Shown piece by piece: positions 1,065 to 17,544 of a DNA stretch of 20,000 nt. The position numbers and the translations under genes were made by a program. This DNA comes from an uncultured Ignavibacteriales bacterium (GTDB lineage: Bacteria; Zixibacteria; MSB-5A5; GN15; FEB-12). The stretch's first letter is position 1. The number at the start of each line of letters is the position of its first letter. The stretch lies in assembly GCA_964464605.1 (NCBI GenBank), contig CAYXJN010000008.1, forward strand, positions 175,038-195,037. The letters are read 5' to 3'. The notes under the pieces were generated by a model, which was not told where the DNA came from, searched no databases, and worked only from the letters and a program-made list of their open reading frames with translations.

Positions 1065-1078
1065 CCATGATTATGAAG

Positions 1079-1112: not shown

Positions 1113-1177
1113 AAAGTATGCACTCCTATCTGCACTATGTAAGCGTTCATTCAGTGATGCTGGTGCGCGGTTTCGGC

Positions 1178-1768
1178 TTACTTTTCCTTTATCACCAAAT
1201 CCATTCCGCACTTTGGACAGGAACTGGGTTTATCACTCGTCACCTCCGGATGCATGGGGCAAACATATATTTTTTGTTCTACACCTGCGGTGTCGTGCGA
1301 AGGTTTCAGATCTTTTGCAGCGTACAGATTTTCGATGAATTTCAATTCGCCGTCCAGTGTGTCAATCAGGATTGCGACTTTAGCAGAGTCACCTGCATCA
1401 CCGGCTTCATCCAAACGTGCCACGAGACTCGGAATACGTTTGGCTGCCTTTGTTAAGGACATCGACTTTTCCTTGATCAGCATTTTCGATTTTGCAGGCA
1501 GCATAGCGACCAAATCCTGAATGGTGAACGCGATATGGTGTATGTCATCCAAATCCTTTGCTAAAAGTTTTGTGTGTAATGCTTTCTGCTGTGTTTCGAT
1601 TGCATTCCATAGGGTAGGGAGTGTATTGAGACTGTCGGTCTTATGTGTGCCTTTGACTTGCACGGTGTCAGCATGATCATGGTTGTCCTGAGCAATCGCT
1701 GGAGTTATGCCAAAAGCGAACAGGAGTAAGAACAACGGTGTCATGCGAAATAGTTTGGTAGTTTTCAT
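1178..1768 (-). CDS. Exported protein with helical His-containing domain and C-terminal heavy-metal-binding domain (YxCPMHP...CPKCGM)
   Basis: Start reassigned to the ATG at 1768 (AAGGA upstream), giving a signal peptide MKTTKLFRMTPLFLLLFAFGITPAIA. Contains HDHAD, DIHH and C-terminal IYVCPMHPEVTSDKPSSCPKCGMDLV. Confidence 0.85.
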   Translation of the reverse strand: MKTTKLFRMTPLFLLLFAFGITPAIAQDNHDHADTVQVKGTHKTDSLNTLPTLWNAIETQQKALHTKLLAKDLDDIHHIAFTIQDLVAMLPAKSKMLIKEKSMSLTKAAKRIPSLVARLDEAGDAGDSAKVAILIDTLDGELKFIENLYAAKDLKPSHDTAGVEQKIYVCPMHPEVTSDKPSSCPKCGMDLVIKEK

Positions 1769-1838
1769 TTCATATTCCTTGTCGTTGTGTGTTTTTATAG
1801 TGCCAACTGTTTGCAAATTGGGTCGTCATTCTGTTTCT

Positions 1839-2618
1839 TTAGAATCCCCATGACAAACCAACGGTAAGCGCAAGCGGAACGCGGACGACGTCATCGGTGA
1901 TAAAAACATCGCTCTCGATGCCAATATCGGCAACGCTACGTACACCGATTTGCTTTCTCAATCCGATGCCAACGGTTCCAACAATGCCCTGACCTTTGAC
2001 GTCGCTTTGTCGAACTGCGAACTCGCCGAGAAGCGTTTGCGTGAAGCTGCGCGGATAACCGATAGGCACTGAATATCCGAGTATTCCGCCAAACGTAACC
2101 TCACGTTCCCCAGGATCAGTCGACGTTTTTATATTAGCATCGACGTTGAAGTGGATTTTATCGTACTGTCGCAATGCTTTGGTCATGATTGCGCGGACGT
2201 GCGCATCGACTCCTTTGGAATCGCGACCTGTTGGCACGCTCAGTCCAAACCGGTACGCCAACGCAGGCCTATTACCGATTTCTCGGCGTAGGGCGTGAAA
2301 AAAACTCATCTCCAAATCACTCGCATCGAATTGATCGGCATCCGTAACATAGGTAGGAGCGAGGGAAACACTCGCATCCATGTTAAGCGCGAATCCATAC
2401 TTTGCTTCGAGCCGTGAGCCGAGCAAGGCCGACGTATGACGTGGAAATATAGCGCTCATGCCGATGTCGACAGTTCGCTCATGATACGCAATGCTTGACG
2501 CATCTTCAAAGCGCAGGGGCCGTCCGTCGTCGATGTTGTTGTGGTCAGTTCCCTTGCTAAGTGCAGGTAACAAAGCAACGCCAGCCACCAAAACCACCGT
2601 TTGAATCAATCTACTCAT
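1839..2618 (-). CDS. Putative outer-membrane beta-barrel/transporter-like protein
   Basis: Signal peptide, alternating amphipathic beta-strand pattern, GLSVPTG segment, C-terminal aromatic signature (LTVGLSWGF). ATGA overlap with the upstream gene and GGAGG SD. Confidence 0.65.
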   Translation of the reverse strand: MSRLIQTVVLVAGVALLPALSKGTDHNNIDDGRPLRFEDASSIAYHERTVDIGMSAIFPRHTSALLGSRLEAKYGFALNMDASVSLAPTYVTDADQFDASDLEMSFFHALRREIGNRPALAYRFGLSVPTGRDSKGVDAHVRAIMTKALRQYDKIHFNVDANIKTSTDPGEREVTFGGILGYSVPIGYPRSFTQTLLGEFAVRQSDVKGQGIVGTVGIGLRKQIGVRSVADIGIESDVFITDDVVRVPLALTVGLSWGF

Positions 2619-4189
2619 ATGCCGCCTCCTTGCGAATCAGTTGTTGAATCATCCTCTGTCGGATGGTATGGATTCGGACGGTTGATTTCTTGGTAAGTCT
2701 CAGGGGTTGGCTCGTTACGTTGTGACCATTCGGCGAGTGACAATGGCGCTTTCCCCTTGTACTCAGGATTGTAACTGACAAATGCAGCGAAGGCCGTTCG
2801 TGAGGTGAACGCGCGCGACCACGATGAGCATTCCGGATGGTCACCGATTTCCTCCAGAAAAACGACACTGTCAAGATTCGCGTGCCAATACCCTTGATCG
2901 TCTGAAATCAAAACGAGGGTCGTTTCGGGATTTTCCGTCGCTGCGCGGATAATTGCCCTCCCCGGCGTTTCTGTTGCCATGTCTCGCGCGCACAGTAAGC
3001 ATCGAACCATCATCGTCCAACCATTTGCGCTCACGCTGGCACCCCAAACCTTTCCATCGGGAAGTCGGACGGAGCAATGACCACACTCACTCATGTTCAT
3101 CCAACCCATACCGGCCATATACATCACTTCCTCATCCGACCCTTTCATCATGCCCATGCCAGGCATGCCCATTGAATAACGATGGTCGTGCAATGTCCCT
3201 GGTTGCCCTTCCCCGGGCTTTTCGCTCTTATGGGTAGTCGAAAGCACCATCCATAAGGCGCGTTTAACCTGTTCTTCTTTTTGCTTTTCCGGAATCCAAT
3301 CGCTGACGAGGATGTCATTGACCATATCGTGAAGCATGTGAAGATTGTCAAAGGCATTGGCAATTTCAGGGAAGCGCTTCGAGAAGCGTGGGCTGCTCTC
3401 CGCCATCATCGGCATGAAATCACGATCGGTTCGATACAGTTCGATCTCATGGTAGCGCTGGCCAATGACCTCGTACTGTTCAACATGGGTATTTGTCGGC
3501 GTATGCCAGAGCATGTCATACATTGTTCCCTGCAACCAGTGGTATCCCCAAAACAGTGCATTGACCTTTGGATACGCGTGACGGAATGCGCCGCTGAACG
3601 GCTGGCTGTCGAGAAACTCCATGTTCATTGGCAATCCGGTGATCACGAAAGGAGCGGACTCTTGGTAATACGTCCAAAGCCGTTCAATCTCAGCATCCTT
3701 CGCCGAGTCGGACATCTCTTTATTGGCCAACACATCAATCGTTTGCGCATGGAGAATATGCGCCCAATCAAAAGTTTTTTCCAGGTACCCATACAGACGC
3801 TGCATGGTCGGCGAAAGGGCGGCCTCATCTGGCATGAGTTTCGGTGGATGATTGAGTACCCAGTTGATGCGATCAAAAGTCGCATTTTCTAAGGTACTGG
3901 CTTTACCGGTCACCATGTCTTCATAAGCCATTGCATGCCCGGTCGCGACGGCGTTCAAATCGTACGCGAGTTTAGGGATATTGTAGACATCGAAGTTGTA
4001 CGAAGCTGATTTATAGAAAATGTGATCGGCGGTGCGGTTGGATATCCACTTCGGCAGATCTTTCGGTGGTGGCTCAAGCCGTTGCATCGAATCCGGCATC
4101 GTCATTGTGTGACCTCGATGCTCTTGCGCAAGCGCTGACCCTCCAATGGCCAGCGCTGCAATGATGAGCAAAGTGTAGTGTTGTTTCAT
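2615..4189 (-). CDS. Exported multi-domain metal-binding protein: four His-bearing helical repeats, Met/Gly-rich linker, C-terminal MerB/NosL-like Cys domain
   Basis: ATG at 4189 follows AGAGG. Signal peptide ends ALA-QEHRGH. Motifs HILH, HMLH, YHWLQ, GHAM, MGMPGMGMM, CGHC and CLLC. Function unknown. Confidence 0.8.
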   Translation of the reverse strand: MKQHYTLLIIAALAIGGSALAQEHRGHTMTMPDSMQRLEPPPKDLPKWISNRTADHIFYKSASYNFDVYNIPKLAYDLNAVATGHAMAYEDMVTGKASTLENATFDRINWVLNHPPKLMPDEAALSPTMQRLYGYLEKTFDWAHILHAQTIDVLANKEMSDSAKDAEIERLWTYYQESAPFVITGLPMNMEFLDSQPFSGAFRHAYPKVNALFWGYHWLQGTMYDMLWHTPTNTHVEQYEVIGQRYHEIELYRTDRDFMPMMAESSPRFSKRFPEIANAFDNLHMLHDMVNDILVSDWIPEKQKEEQVKRALWMVLSTTHKSEKPGEGQPGTLHDHRYSMGMPGMGMMKGSDEEVMYMAGMGWMNMSECGHCSVRLPDGKVWGASVSANGWTMMVRCLLCARDMATETPGRAIIRAATENPETTLVLISDDQGYWHANLDSVVFLEEIGDHPECSSWSRAFTSRTAFAAFVSYNPEYKGKAPLSLAEWSQRNEPTPETYQEINRPNPYHPTEDDSTTDSQGGGI

Positions 4190-4201
4190 GACGTACACCT
4201 C

Positions 4202-4759
4202 TTAATTCGAGTCATGATGATCTTCATGCTCTTCGTTTTCTTTGTCGGAAGCATCGGTTTTTGCTTTTTTAACTGCGTTGTCCAATTCTTCCGCCAATGT
4301 GAGCGGTTTGGCGTCCGTAATACCTTGAGCTTTCACGTAGGCGTCGAAAGCTGCGCGGGATGTAAAGGCGCGGGATTCGGCGGCACAGGTTTTGTGGCGC
4401 TTGAATGATGAGAGGAAAACTGTGCTGTCCGGGGCGCTCCACTTGCCTTCAGTACGCTTGATGATAATAGGTGCGCCCTTAGTTTCGCTTGGTGCCTGTA
4501 CCGTCAGGTCGCCTTTGAAGCGATCTTGATCGGCGAATACACAGTAGATGCAACGATATTCAATCTTCTTGTTGCCATACACGACAATAACTTCGTTATC
4601 CTGTGTTTCAGTGTTCTGCACCAACTTCAGTTTGCAGTACGGGCAAGGTGCTTCATGAGCAATAGCAGGTGAGAATATTGCACTGAGAGCGACGGCAACG
4701 GCAGCGATCGCTATACCGGTTGCGGCGGTCGATTTGAAAAGGGTGAATATGTTTTTCAT
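4202..4759 (-). CDS. Exported Cys/His protein, stand-alone paralog of the C-terminal domain of the 2615-4189 protein
   Basis: AAGGAG SD, signal peptide ending AIA-H, CPYC, CIYC, HKTC, SRAFTSRAAF, and an acidic His-rich tail (EEHEDHHD). Confidence 0.8.
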   Translation of the reverse strand: MKNIFTLFKSTAATGIAIAAVAVALSAIFSPAIAHEAPCPYCKLKLVQNTETQDNEVIVVYGNKKIEYRCIYCVFADQDRFKGDLTVQAPSETKGAPIIIKRTEGKWSAPDSTVFLSSFKRHKTCAAESRAFTSRAAFDAYVKAQGITDAKPLTLAEELDNAVKKAKTDASDKENEEHEDHHDSN

Positions 4760-4793
4760 AACTATCTCCTTAAGGAATTCAAGTTTTATACGT

Positions 4794-5207
4794 TTACAAT
4801 CCGTAGATCAATTCTCCGCCGAAGTAACCAGCGAGACCTACGGCAACGGTGGCAAGTCCCAATAGCAAAAAGTAAGGGGTAGAGGTTAGCTCGCGTTTAC
4901 GTCGCCATATGGCGGTTGCGGCCATCAATACCACTGCACACGCTGCAGCAACAATGTGCACGACAATGCCGCCGTTGAACGTGTACTCCGAGAGAAAAAA
5001 TGCCGCGATTCCGGTTGGAATGACAACGATGGTCGACAGGGCACCGGCAGCAAGATTCCAGAATGCGGCACGTCGAATGATGGCGTTTTTCTTCCACCAG
5101 CCGCACATGTCGAGCAACGCACCGAAGAGAAACAGCGCGATCGGAAAATGTATGACCACCGGGTGAAACCCGTGATCGGGAATGACGTCGGCAATCCATG
5201 CGAGCAT
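4794..5207 (-). CDS. DUF2231-type membrane protein (about four TM helices)
   Basis: Start reassigned to ATG 5207 after a strong GAAGGAGG SD. Contains HPVVIHFPIAL, PTG, a conserved His in TM3 and terminal GYFGGELIY. Confidence 0.8.
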   Translation of the reverse strand: MLAWIADVIPDHGFHPVVIHFPIALFLFGALLDMCGWWKKNAIIRRAAFWNLAAGALSTIVVIPTGIAAFFLSEYTFNGGIVVHIVAAACAVVLMAATAIWRRKRELTSTPYFLLLGLATVAVGLAGYFGGELIYGL

Positions 5208-5353
5208 GGCTCCTCCTTCACAAGTGAACCGTTTAACAACGATTCTAACGATTATTGACTGATCAGTGGTAATGGAGCGGACATGCTTTTCAAACAATGA
5301 CCAATATCCGGCCACGTGTTAGATGGCCGTGAAAAGCATTCCAATTGGAAGAA

Positions 5354-5812
5354 TTAGACGCGGAATGAGTGAGTGACGAGAAACAGCGGATCGGCGGGAG
5401 CGCGATAATTCGCAGTAAGTAACGTATTATGGAGAACACGCACTGCTGAGTTGGTATATGTGGAAAAGAGGAAAGTTGATTCTTGGAAGTTGCGATCCGA
5501 CGTTTGTGAAATATGAGTCGGTAATTCATACTTGTCGACCGTGAAGATATACCACGTCGAGCAACAATACTCTGGTATGGTGTCGCCAGAATGCTGTGCC
5601 GGTGTATCGTCACAGTGTGTTGCCTCTTGGTTCGCTTCGGAATTATGACACGCCGACGATTGGCCATCGCACGTGGTCTGTTGTGCACATTCTGAGGGCA
5701 GGCACTGCTGTGCCACCTCGCAGGTCGCGCGTAGACCCATAAACGTGAGCAAGACGATGCCTATTATTGCATTCTTCAGTGTATGGTGTTTTCCAAAAAA
5801 CATTCTGTTCAT
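5354..5812 (-). CDS. Cys/His-rich leader-type protein with N-terminal hydrophobic segment (resembles DUF2946 / HYC_CC_PP-like uORFs)
   Basis: N-terminal hydrophobic helix, several Cys including a CC pair (EYCC), His residues, and C-terminal YRAPADPLFLVTHSFRV. First gene of the metal operon. Confidence 0.6.
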   Translation of the reverse strand: MNRMFFGKHHTLKNAIIGIVLLTFMGLRATCEVAQQCLPSECAQQTTCDGQSSACHNSEANQEATHCDDTPAQHSGDTIPEYCCSTWYIFTVDKYELPTHISQTSDRNFQESTFLFSTYTNSAVRVLHNTLLTANYRAPADPLFLVTHSFRV

Positions 5813-6220: not shown

Positions 6221-8692
6221 CTACGTGGTGAACAACCTACCAATATCACTGCTCTGTTGCATTTTCAAAGTTTTGTCGCGCGTTTCTTTAACGCTCATGT
6301 CGGCATACTCCCAGTCACTACCTACTTTTCTTGCTAAGATAAAGCGACCAAACACCCTGCCATGTTCTTCGGCAAATTTTGCCAAACCAATTGCCTTTGG
6401 CAAAGTGTCAACATACGCATCGTTGTGTGGTTCGAGAATGTCGACTACGAAACCAGTGCCGGTTTTCCGTATAATGATGAAATCAGGAAAGAACGACTTC
6501 ATAACACCGTTCATTTCATAAGGAATGCAGAATGACCAAATGCGGCGATCCATGTTGCGCAACCAACAGAAAAAGTCATCTTTTTTCATTTCGATAGCGA
6601 GCAATCCCTCTTCCCATGTATTCAAATCAGCGTAGAATTTATGGTCGGCATCGACAAAGAGATGTTTGTCCCACGCTGGCCCTTCCTTTTTCTCGACAAT
6701 CTGGTCGGGGAATTCCCAGTCCTGTTCAGCGGGTTTACCACTGGACTGAATCAGAGCATTGAAACGCACTCGAACTGAAGCGGAAAGTTTTTGAATTGCT
6801 GCTTTGTGTTTCTTCCACCATTTATCGAATTCCTCGCGCGCAAACTTTTCAAGCGCGGGAACGGTTTCTGACTGCCGCATAATAGCGATCATTTCCAACT
6901 TTGCTTGATTTGGTCTTTCCCTGTCGTGAAATTTTTTCCAATAGGTTCGGTGTAAACCTTCGCCTGAAGCAAGTGATCGCCCCGCCGCGTCAAAAAGCTG
7001 CTCGATGTTTTCCTCGGACAATGTGAGGCGCGTTGTCGTTGTTCCAGTGATGGTCATCGCGCTGGTTGCAACGGTCAGCGCATCTACCTCAATTTCTCCG
7101 CCCTCACGAAGGAAGTTACTCCACTCGGTAACCGTCTCGGCGTATCCGTCGCGCAACTCTTTCAGCTTCGTTTGGAAAATTTCTCGCATCTCGTCGTCGG
7201 CGTCTTGATTGAGGTTTTCGTGCATCAACAAACCTGCCAGCCTTAACGCCCGTTTTACTTCGCTCATTTTTGGAATCCGGTTCACGGCATAAGTCGGCAA
7301 AGTACCTAAATGTTCAAAGACTTTTGTCATAGCTGGATTGCGCACATACGTTTCAGCCGTAATTTCAGCGCGAACACCCAAGCCTTCCGTCGGATTGCGC
7401 AGGCTCTCTAAAACTCTCTCAACTGCCTCTCGGTTGTAATGAGGAAGAAACAATTCAACCGTGTCAAGTACCTCGTTTGAGCCGATCCTCCGTGCCAACG
7501 GTGTGCGAACCATGCGCCCAACAAGCTGCGCTATGCTGGTAGGGTCTTCCGCTCTGCGGAAACTCATTATCACTTCGGCACGCGGACAATCCCAACCCGT
7601 GGATAACGCCGTTTTGAACAATACCACTTTTGCGTCCGGTGTTTCCTGAATTCTCGACGCTTCCAATTTACGTACAATTTTGCCGGAAATCGAAAGGTCA
7701 ACCGAATCTTGAAAACAATGAACGATTTCATTTACAGACAGTAAACCAGTTTGTCGCTCAATAACGCGAATGACATCTTCCAACGATGTGCGGGTAAGTA
7801 CTCCTTCAGTTCCATCTTCCACTTGCACCACGAGAATCGGACGAACTACTTCCTTTTCATTTTCTTTGACGCAGTAGTCTTCCCATTGCTTTGTGAAGCG
7901 TTGCCATGTCTTTGCAGCTTCTTCGAGCATCGTCAAATCTCCCGTGACATTACTGCTCGGATTGCGGACGATTATCAAATCTTTCAGTAATCCGCTTGCA
8001 CGAACCTCTTCCGGGTCAATATTGATTGGCCGTTGCGTCCGGTTTGCTGTTCCAAGTAAGGCTGTGAATCGTTGTGGTGTCGCACTCATGCCCAGCACCA
8101 GCGGCACAGGTGGCAATCCGTCCAGCGCCGATCCGAGAATAAACTTTTGCATTATCGTCGTACGATTGCGGTCGTTGGCAGTTGTGCCGCGATGTGCTTC
8201 GTCGATGATGAGTACAAAATCCTGAGACGAGCGGGTGATGGTGTTGGCAATGGTTTGCCAAAACGTGAATTTCCTACGGTCGCCCGGCTCCTTGGTGAGT
8301 AGTTTGTCTTTACCGAGCAACTGCGTGTTTATGAAATATACATATCCGGGTTGCAAATAATCTTCATCGAAACTCTCGCTGTCAATGGTAACCATTTTGT
8401 GAAATGGTAGTTCGTCGCACGTGCTTAGCAGTTTGTTTTGGCTTTGCAGGTTTAATTCGGGCGAATCAGATAGCCAGAGAAAAACAGTGTTTGTTCGTGA
8501 TAAAATTCCATCACCGCCTCCGAATGTGAAATCAATTACCTGCGCTAGTGTTATGGTCTTTCCTGATCCAGTCGGAGCCGCGAGTATGACAGCTTGCAAT
8601 TTCCCCTTTGCAACAGATATACGCGCATCTTCCAGCTCGCAAATTATGTCACGAGCAGCCGTGTCTTGAAACGACTTCAGTTCCATTTTCAT
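6221..8692 (-). CDS. res: Type III restriction enzyme Res-like subunit (SF2 helicase/ATPase plus C-terminal PD-(D/E)xK-like nuclease)
   Basis: Q-motif LKSFQ, Walker A APTGSGKT, DEAH, motif III SAT, GWDCPRAEV, QLVGRMVR, C-terminal FFPDFII...DILEPH. ATGA overlap with the MTase gene. Confidence 0.88.
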   Translation of the reverse strand: MKMELKSFQDTAARDIICELEDARISVAKGKLQAVILAAPTGSGKTITLAQVIDFTFGGGDGILSRTNTVFLWLSDSPELNLQSQNKLLSTCDELPFHKMVTIDSESFDEDYLQPGYVYFINTQLLGKDKLLTKEPGDRRKFTFWQTIANTITRSSQDFVLIIDEAHRGTTANDRNRTTIMQKFILGSALDGLPPVPLVLGMSATPQRFTALLGTANRTQRPINIDPEEVRASGLLKDLIIVRNPSSNVTGDLTMLEEAAKTWQRFTKQWEDYCVKENEKEVVRPILVVQVEDGTEGVLTRTSLEDVIRVIERQTGLLSVNEIVHCFQDSVDLSISGKIVRKLEASRIQETPDAKVVLFKTALSTGWDCPRAEVIMSFRRAEDPTSIAQLVGRMVRTPLARRIGSNEVLDTVELFLPHYNREAVERVLESLRNPTEGLGVRAEITAETYVRNPAMTKVFEHLGTLPTYAVNRIPKMSEVKRALRLAGLLMHENLNQDADDEMREIFQTKLKELRDGYAETVTEWSNFLREGGEIEVDALTVATSAMTITGTTTTRLTLSEENIEQLFDAAGRSLASGEGLHRTYWKKFHDRERPNQAKLEMIAIMRQSETVPALEKFAREEFDKWWKKHKAAIQKLSASVRVRFNALIQSSGKPAEQDWEFPDQIVEKKEGPAWDKHLFVDADHKFYADLNTWEEGLLAIEMKKDDFFCWLRNMDRRIWSFCIPYEMNGVMKSFFPDFIIIRKTGTGFVVDILEPHNDAYVDTLPKAIGLAKFAEEHGRVFGRFILARKVGSDWEYADMSVKETRDKTLKMQQSSDIGRLFTT

Positions 8693-10698
8693 GTTGTGTC
8701 ACCTCGGCCCAGTGCTTCAGGCGTGTTTATTCGGAAGTTTTCAAGATAACTTTTGTAGAGCTGCGTACAGTGAAATTTTCGACCAAGTGCGCGGCGCATC
8801 AACCCAAAATTTTCTTCTGAGTCTGTTACAAGATAGATCCACTCGATGTCTTTTCGATCAATTATGGCGTTACGAAAGGCTCGGAATTCCTTTTCCTTAA
8901 TCAGAACAGCGAACGGTGCTTGTTTAGGAACGTACCATGATTGCGAACCTTTGGAGTCCTCGCGTCTGCCTCGACAACCAGACATCATCCAGAGAATCGG
9001 AAGAATTGCCTGAAACGCATCGCCGCGAGCAACTTCAGAAGGTTCAAGAAAAGCCAAACGAAAGTATTCCATGTTTTCCTCGAACCCTTCTTTTAGCTCA
9101 CGACCGTTCAAGTATGTAGATGGCAAGTCTACTCCATTGTCTCGTTTGCCATTAATAACAAATTTACAGCGAGGCCAAGTAACTGAATTTGCAATCCCAT
9201 GCTCTTCAAAAGCATCTTCACCTTGAAAATGTCCGTTTGAGTTCAATTCGAGAGCCAGCTTTTCGCTGACTTCGTTATTTGTGACGAGTATGCACCTGCG
9301 TTTCCCATCATCATCTGCATTTAGCAATGCGGTTGCATGAAATGTTGTCCCTGAACCAGCAAAAAAGTCCAAAACGATACCTGCTTTTCGTTTTAGCATA
9401 ACAGGCATGAGTGTCTCACAAACTGCATACACAGACTTAGGGTAAGAAAAGCCGGAAGTACCTCCGAAAATGTCTACCAGTAGTTCACTGCCATGTGTGC
9501 TTGCATCGAGAGGCGGCTTGCTCCATACTGTTTTCCATCTCTTTGATTGTTTTTCTTTGAGAGTATAATAGATCTGGATTCCATAATTTTGTCTTGCAGC
9601 GAACAACTTACCAGCCTCAAACTCCGCCTTTGCGCGTGCTGGCCCATAGTGCCAATTTCGCTCAACTCCGAGTTTATCAATCGGCCAAATCGGAATAGAC
9701 GAACCGAGTTTTATCGCATTGCGTTTTTCAGTTTTAGGCAGTGGATTGCCAAAACCGGTTACTTCAAGTGTTTGTTCATTGACGTAGATAGGATAAAATT
9801 GACCCGGCCGTGCAAGTCGTAGCGAATTGTTGCCTGTACGTCGAAGGTTTCTTGTTTCGCCACCGATGGTGGATTCAAGGGGTTGTTCATCAATAATGTC
9901 TTCACCTTGTGGCACAACAAACAGTGCGTATTCGTGACTTCGCGCAAATTCTTCTCCTTGGCGGCCACGCTTATTGTGTTCGATGACTATCGTGAAAAAT
10001 TTGAATCCTTGGAATAACTCTTCAACTAAACACATCAGATGGCCAAGCTCATGGTCGTCTATGGTTATTACTAAGACCCCATCTGGCTTGAGCAGTCGCT
10101 TGCCAAACAATAATCGTTTCTTAATCATTGAGAGCCACTTCGAGTGACGAAAACTATCTGATTTATCTACATAATCGTTGTTGTATTTCCAATCACGTGC
10201 GCCCGTGTTGTAAGGTGGGTCTATATAAATAACGTCTATTTTGCCCTCGTAGCAATAAAGCAAAAGCTGAAGCGCGTGGAAGTTATCGGCGTTGATGAGC
10301 AGGTGCCAAGGTTTGTCAGCCCCGCCTCGCTCAACACGATCCACTGGTTCGAGCGCAGGAAAAATCGGTTCTCCGAAACTCCTAACGACCACAAGGTCGT
10401 CGATATGAAACTCTTTTTGCGTTTGTTTTTGCGTTGATGAACGCTCCACTGAAACGCATATCGCCGTTTTCTTCTGGATGCTTTTAACGCGCCAGAGCTG
10501 GTTTCCAGATTCGCGCTTGAGTGCCACAAGTTCACTTGGCTTCACAGTCAAGTTTGGCAGCCGCACAGTTTCCGGCAGGTGTTCCTCAAAGACGAGCCCG
10601 AACTGCTTAGTCTTTTTTAGTGCCTTTACCTCGGCGGCGATTCCCTTGCGGAGTCGCTCGTCTGGAATTTGCGCAATCAAGTCTTCAATTTTAGCCAT
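8689..10698 (-). CDS. mod: Type III Mod-like adenine-specific DNA methyltransferase (beta class)
   Basis: Catalytic IYIDPPYNTG precedes the SAM-binding LDFFAGSGTT. Also HSKWLSM, FSYPKS and N-terminal FGLVFEEHLPE. Confidence 0.92.
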   Translation of the reverse strand: MAKIEDLIAQIPDERLRKGIAAEVKALKKTKQFGLVFEEHLPETVRLPNLTVKPSELVALKRESGNQLWRVKSIQKKTAICVSVERSSTQKQTQKEFHIDDLVVVRSFGEPIFPALEPVDRVERGGADKPWHLLINADNFHALQLLLYCYEGKIDVIYIDPPYNTGARDWKYNNDYVDKSDSFRHSKWLSMIKKRLLFGKRLLKPDGVLVITIDDHELGHLMCLVEELFQGFKFFTIVIEHNKRGRQGEEFARSHEYALFVVPQGEDIIDEQPLESTIGGETRNLRRTGNNSLRLARPGQFYPIYVNEQTLEVTGFGNPLPKTEKRNAIKLGSSIPIWPIDKLGVERNWHYGPARAKAEFEAGKLFAARQNYGIQIYYTLKEKQSKRWKTVWSKPPLDASTHGSELLVDIFGGTSGFSYPKSVYAVCETLMPVMLKRKAGIVLDFFAGSGTTFHATALLNADDDGKRRCILVTNNEVSEKLALELNSNGHFQGEDAFEEHGIANSVTWPRCKFVINGKRDNGVDLPSTYLNGRELKEGFEENMEYFRLAFLEPSEVARGDAFQAILPILWMMSGCRGRREDSKGSQSWYVPKQAPFAVLIKEKEFRAFRNAIIDRKDIEWIYLVTDSEENFGLMRRALGRKFHCTQLYKSYLENFRINTPEALGRGDTT

Positions 10699-10975: not shown

Positions 10976-11758
10976 ATGGGTCATACGTATTTGGGAGTGC
11001 TTGCAAAAACTCAACTTTGGAATGAGGTTGTTGCTCTTTTACAAAACGAGGCCGACACCGATCTAATTGCCGAAAAGAGCTTCTTAGCCATTGACCAGGG
11101 GCTTTCCAAGATTTCAGACGATGCGGGATTTACCCACGTTCTAACCAACATACTGCAATTCATCGACCAATCAGCTTCCGGCAAGACAACCGACTTCTTC
11201 ACCCAATTTGGGTTGAATGTCAGGGAAATTACATCGCCGCTACACGCGACCGCCGTGCTTAGGGAGACTTCCGACAAGGTTATTCGTCAGGCACGGTGCA
11301 AATCTGATCTGTCTGAATTGGCTCAAAACAGTTTCTCTGAAGCATTTCAAAGTCACCTTTATAATCAACTTCCTACTCTGTTTTCAAATGCGCCGGAGCA
11401 TGTTGAACGGGCTATCAAGAATGTAAGCAAAGGCAAAGAGTTTCAAGCTCTCATGCACGACTTTTATGCCGTTTTCACTCGGCGATATGTCAGTTACTAC
11501 CTAAGCAGGGAGCTTTCCAATCATGTAGGAAGTGGGAAAAAGTTTCGTGATCTAAAAGAACATTCAGATTTTTACAAAGCATTGGATCACCACATTCGAC
11601 AGACGGTGCGGATTTCGGATGATTTCACCCCCGGTTGGTTCGGTAAGGCGAGATTTGAAAAACGGGTCAGTCACGATGATGTCAAAAAGTATGCGTTTGT
11701 AGCGTTTAAGAAAATCCGTTCAGAGTTCAAACGGGGCATGGTCAGTGGCAAACAGTGA
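10976..11758 (+). CDS. Helical hypothetical protein with N-terminal Gly; candidate QatB-like substrate/partner of the downstream QueC-like enzyme
   Basis: 260-aa ORF starting MGHTYLG with a purine-rich GGGAAG upstream. Overlaps the QueC-like gene by 14 nt. The QatB-like role is inferred from gene order and the N-terminus. Confidence 0.7.
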   Translation: MGHTYLGVLAKTQLWNEVVALLQNEADTDLIAEKSFLAIDQGLSKISDDAGFTHVLTNILQFIDQSASGKTTDFFTQFGLNVREITSPLHATAVLRETSDKVIRQARCKSDLSELAQNSFSEAFQSHLYNQLPTLFSNAPEHVERAIKNVSKGKEFQALMHDFYAVFTRRYVSYYLSRELSNHVGSGKKFRDLKEHSDFYKALDHHIRQTVRISDDFTPGWFGKARFEKRVSHDDVKKYAFVAFKKIRSEFKRGMVSGKQ

Positions 11759-13613
11759 ACACCTGATATGGTGCGGCACAGACAAGCCGCCTAAGAAGCC
11801 AGTTGATGGAACTTTGGTTCATCTATCGACTGATGGGCCGAACGAAAATGTCAATTGTCGCATTGAGAATATCTCCAACAAGCTTACGCAAAACCTTTCC
11901 CCTATAATCGAAGACATGATTGAAATTGGAAGCTATGTATATGCCGCCGACCAAACGGTAAGTCGAGGAGGCCCGGCTTGGTCGAACAACGGAGCAGATT
12001 GGACACGGGACTTTCGATTTGTTATTCCAGTCAGGGAACCAGATACATGGAATAAACAGGAAGTTCGAGAATCGCTGGAGGAATTGCTGAGTTTCATGTC
12101 CGGCGACAGTTATCAGTTTGAGTTCACCGAACGGAAATCGATAAGGGCTACGACACCTTATTTTGAGTTTGGTGACAATCCCTGGTTCAGGGCCGATTCG
12201 ATCGTGTTGTTTTCCGGGGGACTTGATTCATTTGCCGGTGCTTTGGAAGAAGTGTTAACTTTGAGGAACAAAACGGTTTTGGTTAGTCATCGATCTGTTC
12301 CAAAAATAGCTAAACGACAATTAGACTTGGCCGAGAAAGTACGGCAACTTGCAGGCGGCAATCAGAAATTGCTTCATGTGCCGGTTTGGGTGAATAAAGT
12401 GAAGGGCTTAACAAAGGACTCCACGCAGAGATCGAGGTCGTTTCTCTTTATGATGCTGGCAGCGAGTATGGGGGAAGTCTTCAAATCGAATACCATTAGA
12501 TTCTACGAAAATGGAATTACGAGCTTTAACTTGCCGTGTAGTGCCCAAGTCGTTGATTCTCGCGCGAGCCGAACTACCCATCCCAAAACACTCAAATTGG
12601 CTTCTGAGTTTTTCACAAAGTTACTCAATCGCCAATTCGTTGTTACCAATCCGTTTTTATGGCATACCAAAACAGATGTGGTTGGAGTAATTAAAAAGCA
12701 CAATCTCGGTTCATTAGTACCATTCACGTCGAGTTGTAGTCATACTCAAACGACAAGCATTATGAACACCCACTGCGGAACTTGCTCGCAGTGTTTCGAT
12801 AGGCGAACGGCAATCATTGCAGGTGGCCTTGCCGATTTTGAGACGGGTGAATCCTACAAAGTTAACTTACCTCTCGATCCAATCAAGGAAGGTCGCGACC
12901 GAACAATGGTTGAGTCAATGGCGCGGATGGCGACTGAAATTGAGGATATGGACGAAGTTCAATTCTGCTCAAAGCTTAACGAAATCGAACGCATTGTCAC
13001 TAACCTCGATCCACCCGTTGACCAAGCTGCTATGCAGGTCATTAGTTTGTACAAACGCCATTCCGCCCAGGTCTTCTCGGTGCTGCGCTCGTTCGTTTCA
13101 GAAAACGCGACGCTTATCCTAAAGAAAAGAGTGCCGCCTGACTCTCTGTTGTCTATGATCGCAGGGTTGATCCAACCGAGTGCTAAAGCGGAAGATAGTC
13201 AAACCATTTGCAAGCTGCCTGATGGAACTACATGGAGTCAACTCTTGGTCGAAATCGTATCCAACGATGCCATTCGAATTAAGGCAAATGGATTTACGAA
13301 ACGGCTCACTTACCAAGACTTGGGTATGCGAGACGGTCGAAAAGGGGACTTTCCAACGGCTCAATGGGAATTGCTGATTGAATTTGCGGAAGGTGGTGGT
13401 ATGTTGAATTGGAAGTCTAAGGGTTCTGACCCCAAGTGGAAAAAGCAAGTAAACGTACTAAGAAAGAAGCTCAAGGACATTTTCGGCCTGTCTGGTGCCC
13501 CGATTACTATGTACCAAAAGCGAGTTGGTTACAAGTGCAACTTTCAGGTAAGCGACTCACGACCGAACCAGGTCAGAAAAAAGATAGATTACACAAATCC
13601 TGAATTTTCATAA
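11745..13613 (+). CDS. QatC-like (QueC / 7-cyano-7-deazaguanine synthase family) protein with additional C-terminal winged-helix-like domain
   Basis: PP-loop LFSGGLDS, LVSH, QRSRSFLF, YENG, SRTTHP, NPFLWHTK, and Zn site SCSH...HCGTCSQC. Long N-terminal region (YAAD...R...WTRDF) as in QatC. About 130-aa C-terminal extension (QWELLIEFA...VNVLRKKLKDIFG...VGY). Confidence 0.85.
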   Translation: MANSEHLIWCGTDKPPKKPVDGTLVHLSTDGPNENVNCRIENISNKLTQNLSPIIEDMIEIGSYVYAADQTVSRGGPAWSNNGADWTRDFRFVIPVREPDTWNKQEVRESLEELLSFMSGDSYQFEFTERKSIRATTPYFEFGDNPWFRADSIVLFSGGLDSFAGALEEVLTLRNKTVLVSHRSVPKIAKRQLDLAEKVRQLAGGNQKLLHVPVWVNKVKGLTKDSTQRSRSFLFMMLAASMGEVFKSNTIRFYENGITSFNLPCSAQVVDSRASRTTHPKTLKLASEFFTKLLNRQFVVTNPFLWHTKTDVVGVIKKHNLGSLVPFTSSCSHTQTTSIMNTHCGTCSQCFDRRTAIIAGGLADFETGESYKVNLPLDPIKEGRDRTMVESMARMATEIEDMDEVQFCSKLNEIERIVTNLDPPVDQAAMQVISLYKRHSAQVFSVLRSFVSENATLILKKRVPPDSLLSMIAGLIQPSAKAEDSQTICKLPDGTTWSQLLVEIVSNDAIRIKANGFTKRLTYQDLGMRDGRKGDFPTAQWELLIEFAEGGGMLNWKSKGSDPKWKKQVNVLRKKLKDIFGLSGAPITMYQKRVGYKCNFQVSDSRPNQVRKKIDYTNPEFS

Positions 13614-13758
13614 TTCGATTCCTCAAAAATAGCTCAAATATTCACGATCAATAAATCACCCAGTAGTAAGCAGTTTGTTCCAAAAATCAACCAGCGTCGC
13701 ATTTTTTTTCGCCGAATTCTGAATTTTCACAAGAAAGGGTAAAGACACTTTGGTTTAA

Positions 13759-13857
13759 CTGATTCGGTCAATTTGTGAAACCAACTTCGCTCGAATGGGC
13801 GAACAACGAGCCCCTGACGGGAACTGACCGAATCAGCCGTCAGGGGTTCCTTATTTG
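13759..13857 (+). promoter_or_regulatory. Structured non-coding leader / attenuator-like RNA element
   Basis: 13-bp stem 13808-13820 with 13837-13849 (one G-U), followed by CTTATTT. 7-bp hairpin at 13786-13803. Segment 13759-13770 is perfectly complementary to the loop segment 13825-13836. Confidence 0.55.
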
Positions 13858-13876
13858 TGATGCTTGGTTTTTTGAC

Positions 13877-14044
13877 GTGAAAGAAAATGAATCCCAGATT
13901 GAGAAGTTGGAACCGACTTCGGATCAACTCTCGGTAGACTCGGCGGTCGAGCCATTTGTTATCGATAAGCAGGCGGCCAGTAATCTCTGGGATTTCTTTG
14001 AAATTCTTCGCCGGTGGGCTGAGGAGGAGGAGAAGAATGGGTAG
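13877..14044 (+). CDS. Small acidic hypothetical protein (start uncertain, 13775 or 13877)
   Basis: Ends in an amphipathic helix NLWDFFEILRRW, and its stop overlaps the start of the next gene. The GTG at 13877 lies just after the hairpin region. Confidence 0.45.
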   Translation: MKENESQIEKLEPTSDQLSVDSAVEPFVIDKQAASNLWDFFEILRRWAEEEEKNG

Positions 14045-14549
14045 GATTAACGGGCAGACTATCCGGCGAATGCGACTGCGAAGAACCTACGATGCGCGGG
14101 AATTAGCGACAATTCTTGGCGTTCATATCGGTACCGTCCGAACGTGGAGTAAGTCCAGTCTCAAACCCATCGACGTCAAGAATTTCCCGAGGCTGTACTT
14201 GGGTAGAGATGTTAGAGCATTTCTCAACCAAAGGTTCAAGAGTAAGCAGCCAAAGATGCAGGCGAACGAATTGTGGTGCTTCAAATGTCGAACAGCTACC
14301 ACATCGGAATCCAAAAATACAGTCATTGAAATCACTGGAAAGCGGCTGGGGAAATCTTCTTTTCATGTTATGGTGCGTGGATTGTGCATAGTTTGCGGAT
14401 CGAATTGTAGTAAGGCATTTTCTCTGGAGAAAGCAGCAAATGCTTACAATTCCCCCGAAGTGCTGTGGTTAGGGGAAAACCGATTATCAGGATTGCAATC
14501 CCCTAAGCTAAACACTGACTCTGAAAGGACTATTGAAGATGGAAGTTAA
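14037..14549 (+). CDS. Excisionase-like HTH protein with C-terminal Zn-ribbon
   Basis: ATG 14037 after a GAGGAGG SD. TYDARELATILGVHIGTVRTW is a MerR/Xis-type HTH. Also YLGRDVRAFL, CFKC and CIVC. Confidence 0.8.
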   Translation: MGRINGQTIRRMRLRRTYDARELATILGVHIGTVRTWSKSSLKPIDVKNFPRLYLGRDVRAFLNQRFKSKQPKMQANELWCFKCRTATTSESKNTVIEITGKRLGKSSFHVMVRGLCIVCGSNCSKAFSLEKAANAYNSPEVLWLGENRLSGLQSPKLNTDSERTIEDGS

Positions 14550-15642
14550 TGCACGAAATGAGAGAGTGAAAAGGCGTTATATCAATTGGCTTGCTCGCGC
14601 TCAAAGTAAGAACGACAAGACCGTTGAGAGTATGTTGGCGGCAGTTTATTCCTATGATGATTTTACCAAAAATTCAAATTATGAAACATTTAGTGAAAAG
14701 AGAGCCATCAAGTACAAAGACTACCTTGCTACCGACAGGCAAGGGAAAGGGCGACTTTCCGCTACTACAATCAGAAGTCACTTGAAAAACCTACAGGCGT
14801 TTTTTAGATATTTATGTGATCAACCGGGCTATCGGAAGCACATTCGACCGACTGAAATCGCGTTCCTTTCCCCGGACTGCGCTCACGGACAATTGCATCT
14901 TTCGAGCATTCCCAAGCGGACTCCTTCCCTTGAATATGTGAAGCGAATTATTCGGTCGATTGCTGGAACAGATGAAATAGCAATGCGAGACCGGGCTATG
15001 ATTGCAATACTCTGTTTAGCTGGAATGAGAGACAATGCAGTTGCATCTTTGCCGATCGGTGCCGTCGATTTGTCGAGAAGGCAAATTGTTCAAGACCCAA
15101 GACATCTTACCCGAACAAAATTCAATAAAGTAATAGTTTCGTACATTCTGAGAATCGACACCGAACTATTCGATCACTTTGCCAATTGGATTCTTTACCT
15201 TCGGGAAGTTAGGCTTTTTGACGACGCCGATCCAGTATTTCCAATTGCAGAAATGGGACAGAGGGAAGATGGCTTTGCTTTTGAAGTAAAGGGGGTGTCC
15301 CGAAAAGCCTGTACTTCTTCTTCCCTTGTGAGAACTGTATTGAAGGGACGAAGCGAAGCTGCCAATCTTGAGTATTACATTCCGCACTCATTCAGGTCGC
15401 TTACGGTAAAATTGGCAATGAAGGCTTGCCGCACACCCGAAGAATTCAAGGCAATAAGCCAGTCGTTAGGGCATGAGGCTGTGACAACCACGCTTCGCAG
15501 TTATGGCACTTTAGATAACCAACGAGTCGAGGACGTTATTTCCACAATTGATTTTGAGAATGTCGGGATGGAAGACAATCTTGATAAGGTTGCCCTTGAA
15601 GCTGCGTTTAGAGAATTTGAACGGCGGAAAAAGAATCGTTGA
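14539..15642 (+). CDS. Tyrosine recombinase/integrase
   Basis: Core-binding region LSATTIRSHLKNLQAFFRYL. Catalytic residues R (RDRAM...AGMR), K (RTKF), HSFR, LGH and Y (RSYG). Confidence 0.92.
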   Translation: MEVNARNERVKRRYINWLARAQSKNDKTVESMLAAVYSYDDFTKNSNYETFSEKRAIKYKDYLATDRQGKGRLSATTIRSHLKNLQAFFRYLCDQPGYRKHIRPTEIAFLSPDCAHGQLHLSSIPKRTPSLEYVKRIIRSIAGTDEIAMRDRAMIAILCLAGMRDNAVASLPIGAVDLSRRQIVQDPRHLTRTKFNKVIVSYILRIDTELFDHFANWILYLREVRLFDDADPVFPIAEMGQREDGFAFEVKGVSRKACTSSSLVRTVLKGRSEAANLEYYIPHSFRSLTVKLAMKACRTPEEFKAISQSLGHEAVTTTLRSYGTLDNQRVEDVISTIDFENVGMEDNLDKVALEAAFREFERRKKNR

Positions 15643-15667
15643 CTACGGTCTGGCAATGTTATATTAT
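15639..15667 (+). promoter_or_regulatory. Putative sigma70 promoter for a leaderless XRE-recombinase transcript
   Basis: TTGACT (15639-15644), 17-nt spacer, TATTAT (15662-15667). The ATG is at 15675 with no SD. Confidence 0.6.
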
Positions 15668-15674
15668 GTTATAG

Positions 15675-15869
15675 ATGAATAAGGAAGCTCTTTTGAAGCA
15701 GCTTGAGAATTACCGTCTCGAAAACAGGATTAGCCAAGTTGAGTTGGCCGAGACACTCGGTGTTTCGTTCGCAACTGTGAATCGATGGTTGAACGGTCAT
15801 TTCAGTCCGAACAAGATTCAGGCATTCCATATTGAGAAGATACTTGCCGGAAAGAAGCCTAAAAAATGA
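15675..15869 (+). CDS. XRE-family HTH transcriptional regulator
   Basis: LENYRLENRISQVELAETLGVSFATVNRWLNGHFSP. ATGA overlap with the serine recombinase. Confidence 0.88.
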   Translation: MNKEALLKQLENYRLENRISQVELAETLGVSFATVNRWLNGHFSPNKIQAFHIEKILAGKKPKK

Positions 15870-17338
15870 AGTGTGTCATTTACGCCAGAGTATCATCGAA
15901 AGAACAGGAAAAGGAAGGGTATTCAATTCCGGCGCAGTTGAAATTGCTAAGGGAGTATGCCGGAAATAAGGGCTTTACGATCGACAAAGAGTTTACTGAT
16001 TCCGAAACTGCAAAATCTTCTGGCCGTCACAGCTTCGGTCTCATGATTGCTCATTTGAAAGCAAACAAAGATTCACGAGTTGTGCTTGTCGAAAAGACAG
16101 ACAGACTTTATCGGAATTTGAAGGACTATGTCACTATTGAAGAAATTGACGCTGTCGTACACCTCGTTAAGGAGAATGAGATACTGAGCAAGGACAGCAA
16201 GTCAAACGCAAAGTTCATGCACCTGATAAAAGTTGCGGTTGCAAAAAACTACGTTGATAATCTTTCAGAAGAAGTCAAAAAGGGGCTACAAGAAAAGGCA
16301 GAACAAGGCTACTGGCCGCATCGAGCGCCGATCGGGTATATAAACGACCTTTCTTCCCATACAATTTTGCCTGACCCGGACAAGGCGGAGTTTATTCGAG
16401 TGCTATTTAGCCGATACGCTACCGGCAGTCACTCGCTTAAGAGTCTCGCTGACATCGCAAAGTCGTCCGGACTCTTTTCTCGCAATTCACACGCGGTGAA
16501 CAAGGCAGGAATTCATAGAATTCTGAAAAATCCGATTTACTGTGGAGAATTTGTTTGGAGAGGAAAACGGTATCCGGGTCAACATGAGGCTTTGATCTCA
16601 AGTGCATTGTTTGGCGAAGTGCAGAAAGTATTATCAGGAGGCAGACCAAGCGGACAAGTCAGCCGCGAATTCATGTTTACCGGGATGGTTAAATGCGGCT
16701 TATGCGGTTGCTCCATGACAGCGGAGATCAAGAAGGGGAAGTACATCTACTATCGCTGTACCGGGTACAAAGGAAAATGCGGGAACACCTACATTCGACA
16801 AGAGAGATTGGACGAGCTATTTGCGGAAGTTGTCGGGCGGCTCAAGGTGCATCCGAACCTCTTCGAGGACATTCGCACTGCGTTGGTTGGAATTCAGAAG
16901 GACAAGACGGCATTTCAAACTCAATCGCTGGATGCGCTCAGTAAACGAGAGAAAAAGTTGCAGTCGATGATAGACTCGGCTTATGAAGATAAGTTGTCCG
17001 GTACTATTTCCCCCGATATGTGGGATCGCAAATCGAAAGATTGGCAAATGGAGCTGTCTGAAATTGGGTGCAAGATACGGGCATTTGATGGTGCGAATGC
17101 TGATTATTACAAAAAAGGTATCGAGATTTTAGAACTCGCTAACGCCGCCTACGGCTTGTACTTGAAACGACCCGATAAGGAAAAGCGGGAACTGCTATTA
17201 TCTGTACTATCGAACTCGTCATTTACTAAGGGAACTCTATGTCCCACATACATAAAACCCTTCGACATACTTGCCAAAGGGTCTAATTTTGAATCAATGC
17301 GGGGTCGACGAGACTCGAACTCGCGGCCTCATGCGTGA
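15866..17338 (+). CDS. Large serine recombinase (integrase)
   Basis: YARVSS with catalytic Ser, SIPAQ, DRLYR, recombinase domain (APIGY, ILKNPIYCG, HEALIS), Zn ribbon CGLCG...YYRC...C, coiled coil. Confidence 0.95.
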   Translation: MKCVIYARVSSKEQEKEGYSIPAQLKLLREYAGNKGFTIDKEFTDSETAKSSGRHSFGLMIAHLKANKDSRVVLVEKTDRLYRNLKDYVTIEEIDAVVHLVKENEILSKDSKSNAKFMHLIKVAVAKNYVDNLSEEVKKGLQEKAEQGYWPHRAPIGYINDLSSHTILPDPDKAEFIRVLFSRYATGSHSLKSLADIAKSSGLFSRNSHAVNKAGIHRILKNPIYCGEFVWRGKRYPGQHEALISSALFGEVQKVLSGGRPSGQVSREFMFTGMVKCGLCGCSMTAEIKKGKYIYYRCTGYKGKCGNTYIRQERLDELFAEVVGRLKVHPNLFEDIRTALVGIQKDKTAFQTQSLDALSKREKKLQSMIDSAYEDKLSGTISPDMWDRKSKDWQMELSEIGCKIRAFDGANADYYKKGIEILELANAAYGLYLKRPDKEKRELLLSVLSNSSFTKGTLCPTYIKPFDILAKGSNFESMRGRRDSNSRPHA

Positions 17339-17373
17339 CAGGCATGCGTTCTAACCAGCTGAACTACGACCCC
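17300..17373 (-). tRNA. tRNA-Asp(GTC)
   Basis: GGGGTCG/CGACCCC acceptor stem, D-arm AGTTCAGCTGGTTAGAAC, anticodon arm CATGC-CTGTCAC-GCATG, T-loop TTCGAGT, discriminator G. CCA not encoded. Confidence 0.96.
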
Positions 17374-17470: not shown

Positions 17471-17544
17471 TGGGCGGTAAAGGATTCGAACCTTTGACCC
17501 TCTGCGTGTAAGGCAGATGCTCTAACCAACTGAGCTAACCGCCC
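17471..17544 (-). tRNA. tRNA-Val(TAC)
   Basis: GGGCGGT/ACCGCCC acceptor stem, anticodon arm TCTGC-CTTACAC-GCAGA, T-loop TTCGAAT, discriminator A. CCA not encoded. Confidence 0.96.

Follow-up and report, generated by a model that had tools for sequence, protein, structure and literature searches.

A probable two-gene QatBC-like module with a putative DNA-binding domain on the enzyme, carried by mobile islands and prophages

The window analysed in this study is a stretch of 20,000 nucleotides (nt) from an uncultured Ignavibacteriales bacterium (GTDB lineage Bacteria; Zixibacteria; MSB-5A5; GN15; FEB-12; assembly GCA_964464605.1, contig CAYXJN010000008.1, positions 175,038 to 195,037). It contains a pair of genes that encode a helical protein starting with Met-Gly-His (P0001, the partner) and an enzyme related to QatC (P0002). 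QatABCD is an anti-phage system that was reportedly described by Gao et al. in 2020. On balance, we favour the reading that the pair is a QatBC-like module, in which the enzyme modifies the N-terminal glycine of its partner and itself bears a DNA-binding domain, and that this module of mobile islands and prophages probably acts in defence. The reading frames of P0001 and P0002 overlap by 14 nt. Both frames are intact, and P0002 retains all catalytic residues. The purine-rich GGGAAGAA is located a few bases 5′ of the P0001 ATG. The positions of all features are shown in Table 1.

The enzyme alone was used to fetch 240 loci, 80 each from species genomes, metagenomes and IMG/VR. An open reading frame (ORF) of the P0001 family was found directly upstream of the enzyme and on the same strand in 220 of these loci. 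Among the 20 exceptions, 17 had less than 800 nt of contig upstream. The remaining three were L014 and L022, whose enzymes were truncated, and L036, which had an intact enzyme and no partner. The 706-amino-acid (aa) enzyme of L036 (L036:3777-5897) was abutted by a D5-type primase on the opposite strand, the sole such case among the 240 loci. The same-strand adjacency of the two families was far beyond chance, and their co-occurrence was obligate. Gly-2 was present in all 205 partners whose N-terminus aligned to profile position 1. His-3 was present in 200 of them (MGH 193, VGH 3, LGH 3, IGH 1), and the other five began with MGS, MGN (twice), MGD and MGT.

P0002 was QatC-like over residues ~46-400. 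The PADLOC QatC model, which has no curated cut-off, matched it at 3e-54, and the QatC chains 9vlk_A and 9zee_B of the Protein Data Bank (PDB) matched at 1.5e-27 and 6.7e-26. The NCBIfam QatC model matched every one of the 33 long-form homologues (best E-value 9e-64). The Pfam QueC domain was matched with 33 bits over residues 153-356, and the QueC model TIGR00364 with 25.9 bits against a cut-off of 150. These features make P0002 a QatC-family ligase, which the curated threshold of that family places in an outlier subfamily.

The catalytic motifs of P0002 are SGGLDS (157-162), QRSRS (228-232), ENG (255-257) and RTTHP (276-280). The zinc cysteines are C331 and C344-G-T-C347-S-Q-C350, followed by F-D-R-R. 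All of these motifs lie in invariant columns of the alignment of 33 full-length enzyme homologues (A2; the partner alignment is A1). The core also holds R229, R231 and F233, a loop (262-277) with S275 and T277, H279-P280, and P303-x4-T308-K309. Serine or threonine occupied both pocket positions (S275 and T277 in P0002) in the family columns of A2. PMC13279940, PMC13329287 and PMC13376578 and the preprint bioRxiv 10.1101/2025.04.06.647259 are cited throughout from the available parts of their text. According to PMC13329287, the cluster-2 motifs are D-x4-R...WxR, DxW/YxxxF, RxRxxxF/Y, ExG, HP and P-x4-TK, with Thr/Thr for the Tyr/Asp of QueC. The counterparts in P0002 are D69-QTVS-R74...W86-T-R88 (spacing 11, not 7), D121-S-Y-Q-F-E-F127, R229-S-R-S-F-L-F, E255-N-G, H279-P280 and P303-FLWH-T308-K309.

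The alignment to 9zee_B related these residues to the Pseudomonas QatC (numbering of PMC13279940). S156/D160/S161 of that enzyme correspond to S157/D161/S162 of P0002, the adenine-binding R233/F237 to R229/F233, which are likewise invariant in A2, and the loop N265-H282 to N262-H279. Its T278/T280, which form the 'non-QueC' pocket, correspond to S275/T277, and its four zinc cysteines to C331/C344/C347/C350. Because the pocket is of the Ser/Thr type and lacks the deazaguanine-binding Tyr/Asp, any carboxylate that P0002 attaches need not be a 7-deazaguanine. The host genome encodes a bona fide QueC (207 bits, above the cut-off) and a QueD, both on contig 7, so that 7-deazaguanine precursors would be available if needed.

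The AlphaFold2 (AF2) model of P0001 was all-helical, with 11 helices and a predicted local distance difference test (pLDDT) score of 86.8. Residues 1-6 had a pLDDT below 50, and the first helix began at residue 13. The N-terminal consensus of the family in A1 was MGHxRLGxLPRTxxW. The relatives of P0001 comprised 77 close homologues and 694 cluster representatives (E<=1e-3), and nearly all homologues were ~260 aa long and alignable from residue 1. His-3 was nearly as invariant as Gly-2, unlike the corresponding position in QatB (MGTS) and CD-NTase (MGGS). With Met-1 removed, this histidine would adjoin the acceptor amine. With Met-1 retained, Met-Gly-His would match an amino-terminal Cu/Ni-binding motif in its spacing.

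P0001 matched no Pfam, NCBIfam or PADLOC family, and PADLOC has no model for the partner. One match to PADLOC PDC-S02 (E 0.0024) was treated as chance because it was weak and occurred in 1 of 44 family members. The NCBIfam QatB model (NF041924) had no match in the genome of the window or in five other pair-carrying genomes. A precomputed Pfam domain was absent in all 77 homologues, which thus do not carry the QatB tag PF28083; this tag was carried by all 120 canonical QatB homologues among the matches listed. The A1 profile did not find the QatB chains 9zee_A and 9vll_A, both present in the searched PDB copy, and hhalign of the P0001 family against QatB alignments of 3 and 20 sequences gave probabilities of 3.7% and 1.0%. 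A search of the Protein Atlas with P0001 gave a weak QatB lead (cluster rank 16, score 0.87, 15% of members with QatB). All canonical QatB examples that were fetched start with MGTS, and the motif of the P0001 family is MGH. Judged by sequence, the P0001 family is a family of its own, separate from recognisable QatB.

The complex was modelled with the enzyme core (residues 1-480, from A2) and the partner without its methionine (residues 2-260, from A1). The interaction prediction score from aligned errors (ipSAE) was 0.91, 0.91 and 0.90 in the three runs, and the best of three controls scored 0.00. Of 157 solved complexes, 116 reach the mark used for this score, as do 2 of 215 mismatched pairs. 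The runs shared at least 94% of their contacts, and the pLDDT of the partner was at least 86. The predicted interface comprised residues 2-10 and the invariant LSRELSNH segment (173-186) of the partner, and residues 264-277 (including S275 and T277), 382-430 and 463-475 of the enzyme. The C-terminal extension of the enzyme (~366-480) is predicted to form the main platform for partner binding. The two QatB-binding surfaces of QatC in PMC13279940 correspond to the regions 264-277 and 382-430 of this interface.

A sequence-only reading of the window had described two overlapping genes, for a helical 260-aa MGH protein and a 622-aa QueC-family protein, and the coordinates, motifs and AF2 helices agree with it. 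The motifs it quoted (SGGLDS, QRSRS, ENG, RTTHP and C...CxxCxxC) are all present in the P0002 translation and invariant in A2. Its proposal that the upstream protein is the Gly-2 substrate has gained from the constancy of Gly-2 and of the gene order, and from the predicted complex with the N-terminal residues 2-10 at the interface. Its label 'QatB/QatC-like' was right for the enzyme, which matches QatC models and the PDB QatC chains, and did not hold for P0001, which matched QatB neither by NF041924 nor by PF28083 nor in hhalign.

The conserved core of the enzyme family ends near residue 480, and the remainder is variable. The 221 tails obtained from 241 loci fell into 22 BLAST clusters, the largest of which had 115, 41, 17 (the class of the window), 14 and 13 members. 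VIA-align of the window tail returned OmpR/PhoB-class domains in all of its first 24 rows. The predicted fold consists of an N-terminal beta-sheet, a helix-turn-helix (HTH) and a C-terminal beta-hairpin wing. The tail ends with an L-R-K-K-L ... G-Y pattern, which is presumably the one familiar from OmpR/PhoB-type domains. Foldseek on the window tail gave nothing at E<=1e-3 and returned weak OmpR-family rows, and neither this tail nor three sister tails of the same class had a Pfam match at E<=0.1, including PF00486 (Trans_reg_C). Sister tail classes were above the Pfam cut-off for Trans_reg_C (L017 45.8 bits, L046 28.8, L068 26.7) and Sigma70_r4_2 (L065).

Profile comparison of the tail classes gave a probability of 67% for the window type against the second class, 1.6% against the largest class and 3.1% against the Pfam-positive Trans_reg_C class. 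These values do not establish a common origin of all tails. The commonest tail, as in L039:9372-10073 and 114 similar sequences, had no profile similarity to that of the window. The predicted fold of P0002 ~499-606 resembles the Trans_reg_C domains of OmpR/PhoB, ToxR and CadC in its beta-sheet, helices and C-terminal hairpin. Unlike those proteins, P0002 has no receiver domain or membrane anchor, and its putative DNA-binding domain is fused to a ligase. The models thus make a DNA-binding winged helix at the C-terminus of P0002 probable.

Many phyla contain the two-gene form together with its dedicated partner family and the extra tail (33-77% identity among the listed examples). The partner family was patchy within the phylum of the host, being present in 23 of 285 genomes (8%) and 21 of 130 genera, and canonical QatB was present in 1 of the 285 genomes (0.4%). 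At least 500 relatives were found in one metagenome scan, and 192 in IMG/VR. Cultured phages and plasmids gave two weak, partial phage matches and one plasmid match. The partner copies in G121, G064, G194, G057, G068, G165 and G103 had an in-frame stop or were fragments. Such broken copies would be expected if the gene is gained and lost quickly, as accessory or defence genes typically are.

Table 1. Positions of the gene pair, its domains and the neighbouring features in the window
Feature	Position	Strand	Evidence
P0001, partner gene, 260 aa	10976..11758	+	ORF and translation; starts MGHTYLG
P0001 N-terminal tail MGHTYLGVLAKT, residues 1-12, unstructured in model	10976..11011	+	AF2 model; alignment A1
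P0002, QatC-family PP-loop enzyme with DNA-binding-type tail, 622 aa, GTG start	11745..13613	+	PADLOC, NCBIfam and PDB matches
QatC-type N-terminal extension of P0002, residues ~1-149	11745..12191	+	Aligned to QatC ~61-155; invariant columns in A2
QueC-like PP-loop core of P0002, residues ~150-365	12192..12839	+	Pfam QueC; alignment to 9zee_B; invariant columns
Helical C-terminal extension of P0002, residues ~366-480, conserved family-wide	12840..13184	+	Family hidden Markov model core ends ~480
OmpR/PhoB-like winged-helix domain of P0002 (predicted), residues ~499-606, one of several alternative tails	13239..13562	+	
Type III restriction-modification Mod methyltransferase, divergent, directly upstream of the pair	8689..10698	-	PADLOC MTase_III 1.9e-112; Pfam N6_N4_Mtase
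Type III restriction helicase/endonuclease (Res)	6221..8692	-	Pfam ResIII 8.2e-14; PADLOC REase_III 1.9e-8
MerR/excisionase-type HTH protein, first gene of the conserved block after the pair	13956..14549	+	Weak Pfam HTH_17; PADLOC mad1 3e-7
Tyrosine recombinase	14533..15642	+	Pfam Phage_integrase and SAM-like domains; neighbour cluster in 17 loci
Large serine recombinase	15866..17338	+	Pfam Resolvase, Recombinase, Zn_ribbon_recom; cluster in 100/241 loci
tRNA-Asp, overlapped by the 3′ end of the serine recombinase ORF	17299-17373	-	
tRNA-Val, after tRNA-Asp	17471-17544		

The recurrent neighbours of the pair were a large serine recombinase (100 of 241 loci), DUF2924, sigma/HTH proteins, AAA_24, D5-type primase, PD-(D/E)XK nucleases, DUF669 and tyrosine integrases. 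Two gene orders were seen. The window-type order was variable cargo, partner, enzyme, MerR-type HTH, tyrosine recombinase and serine recombinase. In the prophage-type order, a divergent serine recombinase/DUF2924 was followed by the pair and then by replication genes. The block of MerR-type HTH and two recombinases after the pair was also present in L003, L004, L006, L096, L098, L099 and L100, and partially in L097 and L051, with varying upstream cargo. The HTH protein of the window belongs to the same cluster as the MerR-HTH neighbour seen in 15 loci. The recurrence of the block at 13956-17373 points to a family of integrative elements equipped with two recombinases. The recombinase genes may be regulated from the 340-nt gap between P0002 and the HTH gene (13614-13955), which contains a short ORF of 89 aa (13775-14044) without a family.

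A restriction-modification (R-M) enzyme adjoined the partner in seven window-type loci, with type III in the window, L001 and L142, IIG/ISP in L004, L095 and L099, and IIG in L096. The REase_III models of PADLOC matched the Res protein of the window weakly and partially (best 1.9e-8) and the Mod models matched strongly, and Res may be a divergent enzyme. After dereplication of 201 directly-upstream neighbours to 146, a PADLOC defence match (E<=1e-15) was found in 32 (22%). The defence matches upstream of pairs included R-M types I to IV, HmaA/HmaC, DrmD, DruE, BrxL, SoFic, ThsB-like and NsnA.

The edges of the island were also sought. No attachment-site repeats were found around the island, and its left edge was not found. 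In contigs from four DNA runs, the island was intact, no island-less junction was seen, and the contigs broke at the tRNAs. No RNA data set is listed as containing this stretch. A 527-aa ORF without a family (2615-4198) was present in 0 of 25 relatives, and the phosphoglucomutase right of the tRNAs in 20 of 25. The accessory region therefore exceeds the island formed by the R-M genes and the pair. Positions 1-5812 hold metal-related genes and genes of no assigned function, among them a HAD/P-type ATPase fragment, an HMBD protein, a DUF2231 protein and a weak MerB-like match.

The Pfam scan of the 19 window ORFs found no gene for QueD, QueE, FolE, TGT, KAP nucleoside triphosphatase (NTPase), TatD or CD-NTase. 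In the 241 loci, a rough BLAST check that used three partial QatA proteins and the host's housekeeping TatD as queries gave no ORF resembling QatA or TatD. The host genome has no KAP NTPase, and its sole TatD is on contig 7, not on the contig of the pair. The sequence-only reading had likewise seen none of these seven genes in the window, and had taken the pair for a stand-alone QueC/QatC-family module lacking QatA, QatD and CBASS genes; window, genome and loci all support this, within the roughness of the BLAST. The adjoining locus that it had called type III R-M was identified as Mod and Res by PADLOC and Pfam. Its term 'deazaguanylation' was overstated, as the available sources show this chemistry for Cap9 alone and P0002 has the QatC-type Ser/Thr pocket, not Tyr/Asp. 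It had also proposed a 'different output', for which the C-terminal winged-helix domain, missed at that time, is the likeliest clue.

The pair was compared with QatABCD by means of the structures 9ZEE/9ZEF and 9VLK/9VLL (PMC13279940, PMC13376578, PMC13639016). P0002 and QatC share the enzyme family, the N- and C-terminal extensions, the long active-site loop, SGGxDS, the Zn-Cys4 site and the Ser/Thr pocket. Both pairs have the gene of a helical partner that starts with Met-Gly directly ahead of the enzyme gene, with the two reading frames overlapping. A 1:1 complex through the same two enzyme surfaces is predicted. Unlike QatB, the P0001 family starts with MGH rather than MGTS, is unrelated in sequence and has a tail of ~12 rather than 30-90 residues. 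P0002 is ~160-200 residues longer than QatC and has a winged-helix-type end, in place of which relatives have other tail classes. The pair also differs from QatABCD in having no QatA (KAP NTPase) or QatD (TatD) with it, and in lying beside recombinases in prophages and integrative islands. QatB and QatC alone protect against lambda-vir, and the QatB mutation G2D abolishes defence (PMC13279940).

Cap9 is the only case with demonstrated chemistry, an NDG adduct (bioRxiv 10.1101/2025.04.06.647259). Like the proposed activity of P0002, Cap9 is a QueC-family ATP-dependent ligase acting on the Gly-2 amine of a partner, whose N-terminus is threaded into the Cap9 active site. As far as it is described there, Cap9 differs from P0002 in being minimal (~185 aa) and in keeping the Tyr/Asp deazaguanine pocket of QueC, where P0002 has Ser/Thr. 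Its substrate is a nucleotidyltransferase starting with MGGS, and in type IV CBASS it partners with a TGT-like Cap10 and a cyclic-nucleotide effector pathway, none of which was found among the window ORFs. QueC itself (TIGR00364/PF06508) shares with P0002 the PP-loop ATP pyrophosphatase fold, SGGxDS and the C-terminal zinc site. Unlike P0002, QueC is ~220 aa long and acts on a small molecule without a protein partner, and P0002 lacks the catalytic signature motifs of QueC.

The likeness to QueC raises the explanation that P0002 is a second QueC making preQ0 for queuosine or DNA modification, next to an unrelated upstream gene. The 33-bit Pfam match and the intact PP-loop and zinc site would agree with this. 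The genome, however, already has its bona fide QueC and QueD, P0002 is far below the TIGR00364 cut-off (25.9 bits against 150) and has QatC motifs instead of the Tyr/Asp substrate residues of QueC, and the enzyme and its partner are inherited together in 220 of 240 loci. Canonical QatC also fails to complement an E. coli queC deletion in the account of PMC13329287. A second QueC is hardly conceivable. It is likewise highly improbable that the pair is a decayed remnant of qatABCD that has lost qatA and qatD. Membership of the enzyme in the QatC family and the presence of interrupted or fragmentary copies in related genomes would agree with decay. Against it, a two-gene form that has a separate partner family and a tail is conserved across many phyla (33-77% identity among the listed examples), the rough BLAST of 241 loci gave no QatA-like or TatD-like ORF, five pair-carrying genomes lack QatB, and both frames in the window are intact with every catalytic residue present.

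The genomic context suggests two other roles. The pair could be a regulatory switch of the mobile element itself, with the winged helix as a transcription factor that acts on excision/integration or lysogeny genes and is controlled through the MGH partner, by modifying or binding it. The type of the C-terminal domain is that of OmpR/PhoB transcription factors, relatives have Trans_reg_C or sigma-70 region 4 tails, the block from partner and enzyme to MerR-type HTH, tyrosine and serine recombinase is kept across phyla while the upstream cargo varies, and the prophage-type pair sits where lysogeny control genes usually are. Such a role is nevertheless rather unlikely, given that the nearest characterised relatives are defence proteins and that known defence genes make up 22% of the upstream neighbours, as one would expect in defence islands rather than around regulators. 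It is also not obvious why a transcription factor would need an ATP-dependent ligase and an invariant Gly-2 substrate, and the free swapping of tail classes on a constant core is more like diversifying recognition than an operator-repressor pair. As for a role as accessory or controller of the adjacent R-M system, such as tuning or licensing restriction, the R-M enzymes directly upstream in seven window-type loci and the R-M components beside other family members speak for it. The neighbouring R-M types differ (I, II, IIG, III, IV), 114 of the 146 direct neighbours have no defence match, many prophage early regions have no R-M, and Mod and Res of the window are on the strand opposite to the pair. 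As the types are mixed and most direct neighbours have no defence match, this is co-location in islands and not a fixed operon, and the controller role is very unlikely.

Several points weigh against the favoured reading, a QatBC-like module modifying its partner and probably acting in defence. The 240 loci were reached through the enzyme and are interrelated, including near-identical prophages, so that counts from them are not independent and overstate independence. P0002 reached 203.2 bits with the NCBIfam QatC model (NF041925), below the equivalog cut-off of 280 bits. The partner has no detectable homology to QatB in the model, profile and hhalign comparisons, its tail of ~12 residues is short beside the 30-90 of QatB, and the family alignment shows no low-complexity tail. 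The complex model lists interface residues, not the enzyme residues that the tail touches. Part of the complex score may reflect enzyme-side likeness, because QatBC and Cap9 complexes are already solved; the partner side of the complex has no sequence likeness to QatB. The commonest tail class (115 of 221, ~230 aa) has no Pfam match, named Atlas cluster or assignable fold. The pair of many loci is flanked by a serine recombinase on one side and phage replication genes on the other, a position that would also suit a regulator of the element itself. PMC13279940 and PMC13376578, in the parts available, leave the attached group open and the reaction of canonical QatC not reconstituted. We infer both the tagging chemistry and the defence role from sequence, models and genomic context.

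Under the favoured reading, the module might work as follows. Met-1 of P0001 would be removed, as the specificity of methionine aminopeptidase suggests, and Gly-2 would be exposed. P0001 is predicted to bind P0002 1:1 through the active-site loop (262-277) and the C-terminal extension (382-430), with its short MGH tail lying against the enzyme. By homology with QatC and Cap9, P0002 would use ATP to adenylate a carboxylate and join it to the Gly-2 amine. The fold of the fused OmpR-like winged helix suggests that the reaction may be tied to DNA, with the domain either sensing incoming DNA or giving a transcriptional output. The winged helix would then take the place of two proteins of the four-gene system, QatA, which binds DNA, and the nuclease QatD. 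From the genomic context, the biological role would be defence against phages or other mobile elements.

Protein-modifying QueC-family enzymes are a very recent discovery. No paper describing a QatC-type enzyme that has this partner or is fused to a DNA-binding domain turned up in the literature search, and the supplements of PMC13329287 may list such neighbourhoods. According to the text available of that paper, only ~34% of the QatC cluster shows a link to qatA or qatD, and the remainder was not analysed there. The pair accounts for some of the 'QatC cluster' genes, roughly two-thirds of the total, that are unlinked to qatA/qatD (PMC13329287). We tentatively speculate that it represents a large uncatalogued class of immune modules borne by mobile elements, in which a QatC-type ligase with interchangeable DNA-reading tails adds a carboxylate to the invariant Gly-His N-terminus of a dedicated partner. 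It is just as tentative that the tails (OmpR-like, sigma-r4-like and others) let the enzyme read foreign or own DNA directly. If true, such a class would couple DNA recognition to protein N-terminal modification without an NTPase or a nuclease. The short partner tail and the single-polypeptide sensor of this simpler two-gene system could make the chemistry of QatC tractable. The QatC scaffold thus appears to have a second, widespread partnership, with an unrelated substrate family, an invariant Gly-His signature and fused putative DNA-binding domains.

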